From an uncultured Candidatus Peribacteria bacterium (GTDB taxonomy: Bacteria > Patescibacteriota > Gracilibacteria > RBG-16-42-10), in NCBI GenBank assembly GCA_964514565.1, contig CAZERA010000001.1:310001-374000 (forward strand): DNA of 64,000 nt, written 5' to 3'. The position numbers were made by a program. How positions within the stretch are numbered: position 1 is the first letter of the stretch; every line of letters starts with the position of its first letter. Shown in pieces: positions 54,001-57,000 of this stretch.

Positions 54001-57000
54001 GGATTGCCGACAGGGAAATTGGCTGGGCGAATGATGATTGGATTGGGAGCATCCAAAAGCTCAATGATATCGTCGTGTCTCCAAATATGATTACCTGAGG
54101 TAAATATATCTACTCCGTATTCCAGCAGATCCAGTGCATTGTCTTTATTGATGCCCATACCGCTAGTCACATTGTCACTATTAGCGATTACGAAATCCAG
54201 ATTTTCTTCCTTGCGTAATTTAGGCACCATGTGTTTTACTGCTTTACGTCCGGGTTTACCGATAATGTCGCCTATACAGAGAATCTTGGCCATGAGCAAA
54301 AGTAAAATAAGGTAGTGCACTATATCAGCTTTTCCATTCTATGTATCCAATCTTAGTTAGTCTAGGACCAATTCATTTTTATAGTTTTGGTACACTTTTC
54401 ATCATAGGTATACTAGCAAGCTGGCTTTTATTGAAGTATTTAGTTGAGCTTCACAGCTTGCTTATTCGCGTTTTTTATGTGGGTATGCCATGGTTGATCA
54501 TCGGTGGAGGAATCGGCGGGCGTTTGGGCTTTGTACTGACGCATTTAGATAAGTTCTATCGCAATTGGGGAGCTGTGTTTTCAGTCTGGACCTGGTGGGG
54601 AGAGTGGGAATTGTGGGCTGGTGTGATTGGTGCGGGACTGGCTATGATTATATTTTGGATCAAACACAACGAGCCAGTTTTTTTGTGGTTAGATGTCATG
54701 AGTATCTCCATTCAACCTTTGATTCTGTTCACGGCTTTAGGTTTACTGTTGAGTCCGATCGGACTAACTACCGAGGCTTTAGGTGGACCAACCACCATGC
54801 CGTGGGGTGTGATGGTAGACTCAGTTGATTTGCCATTTGCTAATGTCCCTGTGCATCCACTATTCTTCTATACCAGTGCAATGGCTTTGCTTACTTTGCT
54901 AGTATTACTGTACCTACGTCGTTGGGCTCCCAGGTATGTGGGCCGATTATTTGCTGTGATGTTGGTATTCTATAGTAGTCTCTGGTCTATTCATTATTTG
55001 GTCCGCTGGCATGTACCAAATTCATTATTTGGTGTTGACCTCTTTCTTTTCAATCAAGCCTTATATTTGTTATTGGCTATCATGTGCGCAATCTACATTA
55101 TCCGCAAAAGAAGACTGGCCCAACGCAAGAAACTGCAACATTTCTCCGACCTATAATCGACGTCAATTTGAAATCTATAATTTAAGATTTAGATTTTAAA
55201 ATTAAATCTTAGAATAGAGTCTCCGGTCCAGCAAACTTAAGGCCAAGCTTAGTAAATCCCACTTCTTCACAAACTTCGCGTGCCTTAGCTTTGTTTGGCC
55301 CCTGATAGTTGATGGTATTCAAGTGTTCAGTAATTGGTGTCTGACAATTGATTGTCACCATTTCTTTGGTAAATCGTGCTTCTTTCTCATGCTCACGCAG
55401 CTTTTTCTGAGCGCTGCCAGTTACTTTGTCGAGATTGAGATAAAGGTTATCCAAACTGCCCCATGCTGTTAGTAATGTCTTGGCTGTTTTTTCCCCAATG
55501 CCAGGCACACCAGGTAAGTTGTCAGAAGGATCTCCGCGTAGTGCTTTATAGTCAATCCATTGTTCAGCTTTGAGGCCATGTTTTTCCAGTACATTGCCTG
55601 GAGTAATCTCTACAGCGTTATTCATGCCGCGCGAGATACAATAAAAAGTAGCGTACATATTTACAAGCTGCACAAAGTCATTGTCACCAGATACAATGAT
55701 ATTGGGGAGACTTTTCTCGGTAGCTTCTTTACTGAGGGTGCCAATAATATCGTCTGCCTCATAGCCTGGGAGCATGATAGTCGGCACTTGTAAGGCTGCT
55801 AAAAATTGTAGGATCCTAGGGAGTTGTTCAAATAGCCCCTCTGGTGGCTCGGTTCGGTTGGCTTTGTATTCTGTGTACTGTTCATGACGAAATGTCTTGG
55901 TCGCAGTATCAAAAGCACAAGCAATATGGGTAGGTTGAAATAAATCAATCAAATTCACAATCGTATTAGCAAAACCAAAGGTAGCATTAATCATCTCACC
56001 ACTTTTACTCTTCATAGTAGTAGGCAAGCCATGAAAGCTGCGAAAAAGGATGGTACTACCGTCTATTAATAACAACATGTTACTTTTTAAATCTGGAGTG
56101 ATACTAATGGGAAATGAGGTAAAAGGTAAGATGGAAGAGGTAAGAAATGTACGGGCTTAGGGATAATTATGCCCTCCATGCATATGGACAAACAGCATGT
56201 ACACTTTTTACCTCTTACCTCTTACTTCTTCCCTCGACAGCTTGTCGATTTGACCTGTAGCATGTGTATTGCTACATTGTCCGCGTTCTTTCTTTCCGTT
56301 GGTGCTACTTGGGCACAGATACGGATTTTTATCCACAAGAAAGTATTTTATTATATGCCACTCAAAAAGAAAAAGGCTCTTCACTCAGAGCAACGACTTT
56401 ACGAAGTCATCGCTCTTTTCCCAGGTGATGTGCTTGATAAGGAAGGGGAAAAATTTCCTGAGATTCTCCAAAAGAATCTTGAAGCAGTTGGTGCTGAAGT
56501 GAAACGTATGGAAAACTGGGGAAAACGCCCACTTACTTACGATATAGCTGGTCATGACCATGCTTTCTTTGTGTTTGCTCACTTTGTTTTGGATTCAGAA
56601 CAAGTGATTGCTTTGACCAAAGATTTGCGTCTTGAACCAAAAGTTTTACGTTCTTTGATTACTTCTGTACCAGAAGAATATCTATTACCTGAGACTGCAC
56701 CTTTGGCTAAAGAGTTTTTAGGTTGGGTTCGTGAGCCAATTCATCCAGAAGATGCTGAGCTCATGAAAGAGAATTTTGACAAACGTGCTCACCGCCGTCG
56801 TTCTGGTTCAAATATGGACATCAAAAAGCCTGAGGGTGCTCCTGCAGCAGATGCAGCAGCCGCTCCAGCTAGTACTGCAGCTAAGAAGCCAGGTGCTCCG
56901 ATGTCTAGTATCAATCAGAAGTTGGATCAGATGCTCAAATAACCCAGCTAAACTTTTACTTTATTACCTATGAGAAGCGTTAATATTGTCATTTTAATGG

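Follow-up and report, generated by a model that had tools for sequence, protein, structure and literature searches.

A stand-alone flap nuclease of Pol I type with a putative clamp-binding tail in a Candidatus Peribacteria genome, and the absence of family A polymerase from most Gracilibacteria

The nuclease gene and its surroundings

The window analysed here, a stretch of 64,000 nucleotides from an uncultured Candidatus Peribacteria genome (G000, whose family is labelled f1), carries on its minus strand at 55209–56078 the gene of a 289-amino-acid flap nuclease, P0001, which ends in a TAA stop and is the sole copy in the genome. The catalytic domain PF02739 (amino acids 2–168; 55575–56075, minus strand; Pfam, E 8e-51) bears D6, D57, Y71, K72, R75, E107, D109, D110, D132 and D134, and is followed by the helix-turn-helix DNA-binding domain PF01367 (amino acids 170–263; 55290–55571, minus strand; Pfam, E 1e-30) with D183 and D186. 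The C-terminus, PETLF (amino acids 285–289; 55212–55226, minus strand), corresponds in the alignment to the class tail QxSLF and is a putative β-clamp-binding motif. Pfam found these two domains alone in P0001, a polymerase domain being absent, and the stop lies at amino acid 289, which bears out the description of this gene (g00320) in an earlier note as only the flap-nuclease part of Pol I.

On the downstream side, lgt (54341–55156, plus strand) is convergent with P0001 and lies 52 bp from the nuclease stop, and there is therefore no room for a polymerase half behind P0001. An AT-rich imperfect palindrome between the two stops (55157–55210) was not called as a terminator, and the scan for promoters and terminators gave nothing exceeding shuffled sequences. 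The divergent neighbour rpsF–ssb–rpsR (56169–57744, plus strand) is given as context only; this neighbourhood of the nuclease gene recurs in 5/6 other f1 genomes. Elsewhere in the window are a TrpR-like gene (58531–58824), adjacent ruvA and ruvB genes, the end of the latter overlapped by dciA from the opposite strand (62011–63836) and, on the minus strand at 47908–50382, a gene for a secreted-looking protein of 824 amino acids with DUF285 repeats and an SLH domain. Code 25 was rejected for this genome, in which TGA is a stop (79 TGA stops in 720 long ORFs) and table 11 is used.

The carboxylates of metal sites I and II of P0001 are intact (D6, D57, E107, D109, D110, D132, D134, D183 and D186), and each of these nine catalytic acids is kept in at least 119 of 122 aligned nuclease homologues. 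According to passages of PMC2650880, two-metal-site FENs and ExoIX are told apart by their metal-site carboxylates; as all nine acids are present in P0001 and conserved, the protein is classed with the two-metal-site FENs and not with ExoIX. Judged from these residues, P0001 is a complete two-metal-site flap nuclease, with the corresponding activity predicted.

When P0001 was compared by sequence with known structures, the N-terminus of Pol I (6vde, E 7e-58) was the best match, ahead of the stand-alone 5'-3' exonuclease 6c33 (E 9e-36) and Xni (E 5e-24), and NCBIfam ranks its relatives in the same order; the closest labelled relative, with 78% identity, is from an uncultured Candidatus Peribacteria. 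The Pol I model TIGR00593 gave 295 bits against a cut-off of 600 and the Xni model 148 bits against 261, and the loss of site II aspartates that marks ExoIX/Xni was not seen. P0001 also falls under the cut-offs of the PRK14976 models and, being a single copy with no Pol I alongside, is not a paralogue of the FenA/YpcP type, while the archaeal FEN model TIGR03674 gave P0001 no match and one homologue of the class just 23.8 bits. The discrete two-metal-site FENs (S. aureus FEN, B. subtilis FenA/YpcP and M. smegmatis FenA) resemble P0001 in standing alone, in having about 290–320 amino acids and in keeping both sites intact, but they coexist with Pol I, whereas P0001 is nearer to the N-terminus of Pol I and has a clamp-type tail. 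It is likely that P0001 was reduced from Pol I, although the nuclease tree described below is no proof of this.

Distribution and history of the family A polymerase

A profile search of the genome gave 0 candidates for PF00476. Its six-frame translation was also scanned unfiltered (hmmsearch --max) with a profile that was built from 30 polymerase domains of the class and spanned the Klenow-type halves; the best E was 0.81, and tblastn gave a best E of 0.013. Positive controls for unfiltered scans scored E below 1e-130, and the Pol I domains of the class, where present, score 400–550 bits. PF00476 was also found in none of the eight f1 genomes (G000 and seven others), in agreement with the earlier claim that genome and family have no family A polymerase. 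Since G000 is 92.7% complete, in seven contigs, the absence in this genome is by itself no proof, and the polymerase half might lie in unassembled DNA or have been overlooked. This reading draws on the incompleteness of G000, on the occurrence of the polymerase half as a separate, unlinked gene in related families, and on the loose first filter of the genome search, which can overlook genes and with which the short clamp domain was missed in 4/30 genomes, one of them a single contig. Against it stand the height of the scores that Pol I domains of the class reach when they are there, the negative unfiltered scans not only of G000 but also of the single-contig genome G027, and the distribution over the class.

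Across the class, PF00476 matched 50/301 genomes (45/253 of those of high quality) and a homologue of P0001 was found in 288/301 (249/253), almost always in single copy, although the genomes are kin and such counts therefore overstate independence. The earlier figures of 13/61 and 60/61 agree with these, and the nuclease-only condition is, as had been claimed, the usual state of the class. The distribution is all-or-none by family: PF00476 is kept in f23 (21/21), f30 (3/3), f31 (15/16), f17 (2/2) and f5 (3/4), and is absent from f1 (0/7), f10 (0/40), f12 (0/31), f13 (0/40), f18 (0/12), f20 (0/12), f25 (0/11), f27 (0/8) and f28 (0/13). Furthermore, 17 single-contig genomes of the class, 90–100% complete, have the nuclease and no match to PF00476, and five carry both; the weakest of the 17 is G216 (single contig, 90% complete), in which the clamp gave no match and polX is broken, so that assembly errors are possible. 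The loss of the family A polymerase is thus almost certainly real, and the reading as an artefact is already close to refuted and can hardly be right. The matches in G060, G098 and G220 were rejected as weak and divergent, neither score nor sequence being Pol I-like, which leaves 47 genomes with true Pol I.

In the phylum outside the class, PF00476 was found in 129/142 genomes, mostly fused; of the 13 without it, 12 keep the nuclease. A divergent family A polymerase lies 5–11 kb from polX in six genomes outside the class (G369, G436 and G327, loci L386–L388, and G348, G389 and G407); the nuclease stands alone in all six, and the polymerase has 600–636 amino acids in five and 440 in G348.

The nuclease-only state itself is already known from other lineages. 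A 'Solo Exo5-3 only' state is given by Timinskas (2026; PMC12926913), in the parts of that survey drawn on here, for 109 genomes (3.55%; mean size 1.48 Mb), chiefly Tenericutes, Verrucomicrobia and endosymbionts. Those bacteria resemble the present ones in having no Pol I orthologue and a stand-alone FEN-like nuclease for primer removal; in contrast to the present case, these parts report neither a clamp motif for solo nucleases nor any connection with Pol X. As far as the main text of PMC12926913 was covered, it names no Patescibacteria, CPR or Gracilibacteria, and among the rows listed from its supplement there is no Peribacter, Gracilibacteria, Absconditabacteria or Peregrinibacteria. By word search, the Vampirococcus paper (PMC8080830) does not discuss Pol I. 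Our literature search, mainly of openly accessible papers, gave no report of nuclease-only Gracilibacteria and none of a clamp-tailed stand-alone bacterial FEN.

Where Pol I is kept in the class, f7 and f16 have it as one fused protein, f5 and f6 as two halves encoded side by side, and f17, f23, f30 and f31 as two halves encoded at unlinked loci. The split point lies inside the 3'-5' exonuclease domain, behind a GHNxKYD motif, and the N-terminal halves have 380–449 amino acids compared with 289–349 for the nuclease-only proteins. A programmed frameshift joining the halves of f5 and f6 was rejected, as a stop follows the motif in the first ORF and the second ORF has a Met of its own. The fused Pol I of G014 (L079, f16) bears PKDSLF in a loop inserted where the proteins of its relatives are split, and may represent the state before the split.

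In the RpoB tree, the IQ-TREE version of which omits G014 (a fragment of 208 amino acids), the families with Pol I and the nuclease-only family f13 form one nested clade with a support of 99, and this clade nests among nuclease-only families. The Pol I-keeping families are thus a single clade whose Pol I is mostly split, which goes beyond the earlier note. The nuclease tree places the nucleases of Pol I-keepers apart from the nuclease-only ones (support 91 and 90), although a single clade of all class nucleases is not rejected (AU p 0.28). The grouping of the nucleases hints at an early loss of Pol I followed by one regain; taken together, the trees leave two histories, repeated losses or an early loss that was followed by a regain and by another loss in f13. 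Given the two trees, a simple series of fused, split and lost within the class is not established.

Two further observations concern the genetic code. In f26 (L292 in G043, L174 and L175) TGA is read as Gly, 55/79 TGA codons of rpoB falling at conserved Gly positions, and on both trees this family branches with the code-11 family f14, away from the clade of f13, f23, f30 and f31; an independent recoding is possible. In G020 (L173, f21) the nuclease gene has a single TGA, at conserved Gly190, and the rpoB stretch has no TGA.

The C-terminal tail of the nuclease

The tail was surveyed in 122 fetched nucleases, picked for score and family coverage and not randomly, by the pattern Q..[LMI][FL] or a six-residue form within the last ten amino acids, the fused proteins of f7 and f16 being excluded from the counts. 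It was present in 63/70 nucleases from class genomes without true Pol I (24/26 families, with f1 set apart), or 67/70 by a looser pattern, and in 17/21 split N-terminal halves of the class; in other classes it was present in 7/12 nuclease-only and 7/9 split cases. The background among long ORFs was 7/720 in G000 (14 by the looser pattern) and 9/589 in G027. The typical class tail, QxSLF, in an exposed terminal position, agrees with the β-clamp consensus Q-x-x-[LM]-[FL] or its six-residue form, as given in the part of bioRxiv 10.64898/2026.09.19.751633 that we drew on. The tail is missing in f30, f37, f90 and f104 and atypical in f8, and is therefore not needed everywhere; the second, paralogous nuclease of G321, which occurs beside a fused Pol I, also has no tail.

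Linker motifs of the same type occur in 7/26 fused Pol I proteins of Patescibacteria and 5/24 others. Those of the QxxL[FL] form in fused Pol I of Patescibacteria and Chloroflexota (L105–L133, L309, L319, L325 and L330) were not found in the literature examined. As the motif is already present in Pol I linkers, a truncation right behind it would be a simple origin of the tail. These linkers also lend themselves to a less functional explanation, in which the polymerase was lost and DnaE fills the gaps, while the tail is an old relic of the Pol I linker and the nuclease acts away from the clamp, as FenA of B. subtilis does. The absence of the tail from several lineages and the lack of Gln in f1 are in line with this, and a word search of the B. 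subtilis FEN paper (PMC10191290) gave no mention of the clamp. A relic, however, does not readily account for the terminal F, which does not vary over 34 aligned rows although the linker ahead of it ranges freely from 1 to about 35 amino acids, nor for the split halves, which end about 100 amino acids further on, in the 3'-5' domain, and bear the same tail, nor for the changes in f1 described below, and we regard this explanation as quite unlikely. In the class at large, the tail is likely to be a working clamp motif with putative binding to the β-clamp.

In family f1, 7/7 tails keep LF, none has Q and 0/7 fit the pattern. Inside DnaE, the clamp motif of 5/5 f1 genomes is P-[KAVQ]-D-S-L-F, four of them without Q, compared with QVSLF in the sister family f2; the proline of the f1 tail is one place off from that of the DnaE motif. 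The clamps of f1 end in MPR in 5/5 genomes, whereas 26/26 other clamps have L at that place, a residue that lines the peptide pocket in the E. coli clamp. The tail, the DnaE motif and the clamp C-terminus of f1 thus appear, in sequence, to have drifted together, and the drifted tail is fairly likely to be a working clamp motif as well, again with putative binding. Complex prediction of the G000 DnaN with amino acids 255–289 of P0001, both partners entered as alignments, gave 0.25 and 0.18 against a mark of 0.32, controls not being folded; these values weigh neither for nor against binding. The two family Y loci of G000 are L066 (C5) and L070 (C3), one behind a LexA-like gene and one umuDC-like; the UmuC of the latter has the standard QLSFF and not the drifted form of f1.

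The nearest counterpart of the arrangement proposed for P0001 is FEN1 of archaea and eukaryotes, which binds PCNA via a C-terminal PIP box. Both would be free flap nucleases with a C-terminal clamp motif and fill-in by the replicative polymerase, but P0001 has a bacterial sequence of Pol I type and a motif of β-clamp type, and the likeness is an analogy only. Archaeal and eukaryotic RNase H2 also carry a PIP box, and a parallel is seen in f10, where RNase HII ends in QGKLF or QGRLF in G027 (L300) and G093 (L302), an ending not seen in G000 or G075. Among family A enzymes, actinobacterial PolA2/APEX and Mycobacteriales Pol I carry QxxL[FL] on a Pol I-family chain (section 15 of PMC12926913 and parts of bioRxiv 10.64898/2026.09.19.751633), and PMC12926913 presents PolA2 as the first clamp-motif enzyme of family A. 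In these proteins the motif lies within the chain, in its polymerase or 3'-5' part, whereas here it is terminal, on the nuclease, and the polymerase is gone. Pol I is usually described as clamp-independent, and in the literature examined clamp motifs were reported just in actinobacterial family A enzymes; the clamp-type tail and its drift in f1 are new, as are the complementary distribution of Pol X and Pol I and the candidate DnaE-only genomes described next.

Candidate enzymes for primer gaps

The lack of PF00476 in most of the class supports the earlier proposition that primer gaps must be filled by another polymerase. Families A, B, C, X and Y and the LigD Prim-Pol were searched; in G000 they turned up a single DnaE, a single Pol X and two enzymes of family Y, but neither family B nor LigD Prim-Pol. 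As general replacements, family B (1/301 class genomes), LigD Prim-Pol (0/5) and family Y (11/32) were rejected as too rare or patchy. An unrecognised enzyme, such as a divergent primase-polymerase, a reverse transcriptase or a new fold, might supply the activity from beyond this search scope, and 5/21 window proteins have no or a weak Pfam match and many genes belong to no family; but this is very unlikely, given the rarity of family B and LigD Prim-Pol, the lack of a shared polymerase-like neighbour of the nuclease gene across families, and reports, in the parts of PMC12926913 and PMC13082043 drawn on, that bacteria tolerate the loss of polA when a FEN is present.

Pol X is the more serious candidate. 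It occurs in 129/251 class genomes without PF00476 and 2/50 with it, both of the latter being weak, divergent PF00476 matches, and in 0/47 with true Pol I; since the Pol I-keepers of the class are one clade, this contrast is close to a single event. Outside the class, Pol X was found in 12/13 genomes without PF00476, which span nine families, compared with 22/129 with it. The motif GSxRR..DxD is intact in 22/23 fetched Pol X proteins, that of G000 having an intact DxD, and eight of them are short forms (262–337 amino acids) without the PHP domain, which is shortened in f1; from section 17 of PMC12926913, loss or shortening of this domain is the reverse of the usual trend. These observations would suit a model in which, in lineages that have it, Pol X and not DnaE takes the place of the Pol I polymerase at primer gaps and acts with the FEN as a Pol I in two proteins. 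However, Pol X was found in only 2/40 genomes each of f10 and f13, where those without it include seven single-contig genomes; it is patchy in f9, f18 and f20, and its gene seems to be broken in G216. No A, B, X or Y match was obtained in seven single-contig genomes (G027, G073, G093, G142, G065, G075 and G105). G027 has a single DnaE, and unfiltered A, X and Y scans over its whole length of 962,416 bp gave best E of 0.16, 0.075 and 0.037. Moreover, Pol X enzymes are short-gap repair enzymes. A take-over of primer gaps by Pol X in the lineages that have it is unlikely, and Pol X is best read as an optional repair substitute.

As f10 and f13 are mostly without Pol X, Pol X is no general answer and DnaE can be one; where Pol X is intact, as in G000 and about half of the class genomes without Pol I polymerase, DnaE is not the sole candidate. 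On the whole, DnaE is likely to be the main primer-gap filler. RNase HII and UvrC were present in 5/5 tested genomes and RNase HI in 4/5.

We consider it moderately likely that Okazaki fragments are matured without Pol I by DnaE and a clamp-held FEN, with Pol X for repair where it is kept. DnaE on the β-clamp would extend the Okazaki fragment as far as the preceding primer or into it, by strand displacement or after digestion by RNase H or FEN; the FEN, held on the β-clamp by its tail, would cut the RNA flap, as FEN1 does with PCNA, and ligase would seal the nick. The short gaps of base, nucleotide and ribonucleotide excision repair would be filled by Pol X where it is present, for example in G000, and by DnaE alone in f10 and f13. 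The nuclease gene would most likely have arisen from a polA cut just behind the clamp motif in the linker. Clamp binding and gap filling by the P0001/DnaE system are inferred from sequence, and the nuclease-only bacteria of the class probably complete the lagging strand like archaea and eukaryotes, with the main polymerase and a clamp-held nuclease. In the parts of PMC13082043 drawn on, primers are displaced by the DnaE of B. subtilis, which acts together with FEN if polA is deleted; as that enzyme belongs to another DnaE subgroup and works beside PolC, the transfer of strand displacement to the present bacteria is limited.

Okazaki-fragment maturation without Pol I is an active question in bacteria. 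A 2026 preprint proposes DnaE and FEN as a backup in B. subtilis, and this backup route appears to be the normal one in most of one bacterial class. The clamp-type tail offers a sequence clue to how nuclease and polymerase may stay coupled once their chains are separate, and a small set of proteins (DnaE, DnaN, FEN and ligase, with or without Pol X) would serve for reconstitution; f1 provides a natural pair for clamp and motif co-evolution, and f10 and f13 are candidate one-polymerase cells.

More tentatively, and with rather less than even confidence, several lineages of Patescibacteria may independently have rebuilt a clamp toolbelt in the manner of archaea and eukaryotes, with the Pol I polymerase given up, a PIP-like tail on the FEN, Pol X as repair filler, a tailed RNase HII in f10, DnaE as sole polymerase in f10 and f13, and a shifted clamp code in f1. 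If so, the DnaE of f10 and f13 would do all replication and repair synthesis in genomes of 1.0–1.3 Mb that keep excision repair, and the clamp code of f1 would have shifted together with the clamp pocket.

Two minor observations concern proofreading in G000. The PHP metal ligands of its DnaE seem, by eye, partly substituted, and 2 kb from polX (C2:39502–40095, plus strand) lies the gene of a 193-amino-acid RNase_H_2 or 3'-5' exonuclease-like protein that ends in PEQTLF and is a candidate clamp-held proofreader.
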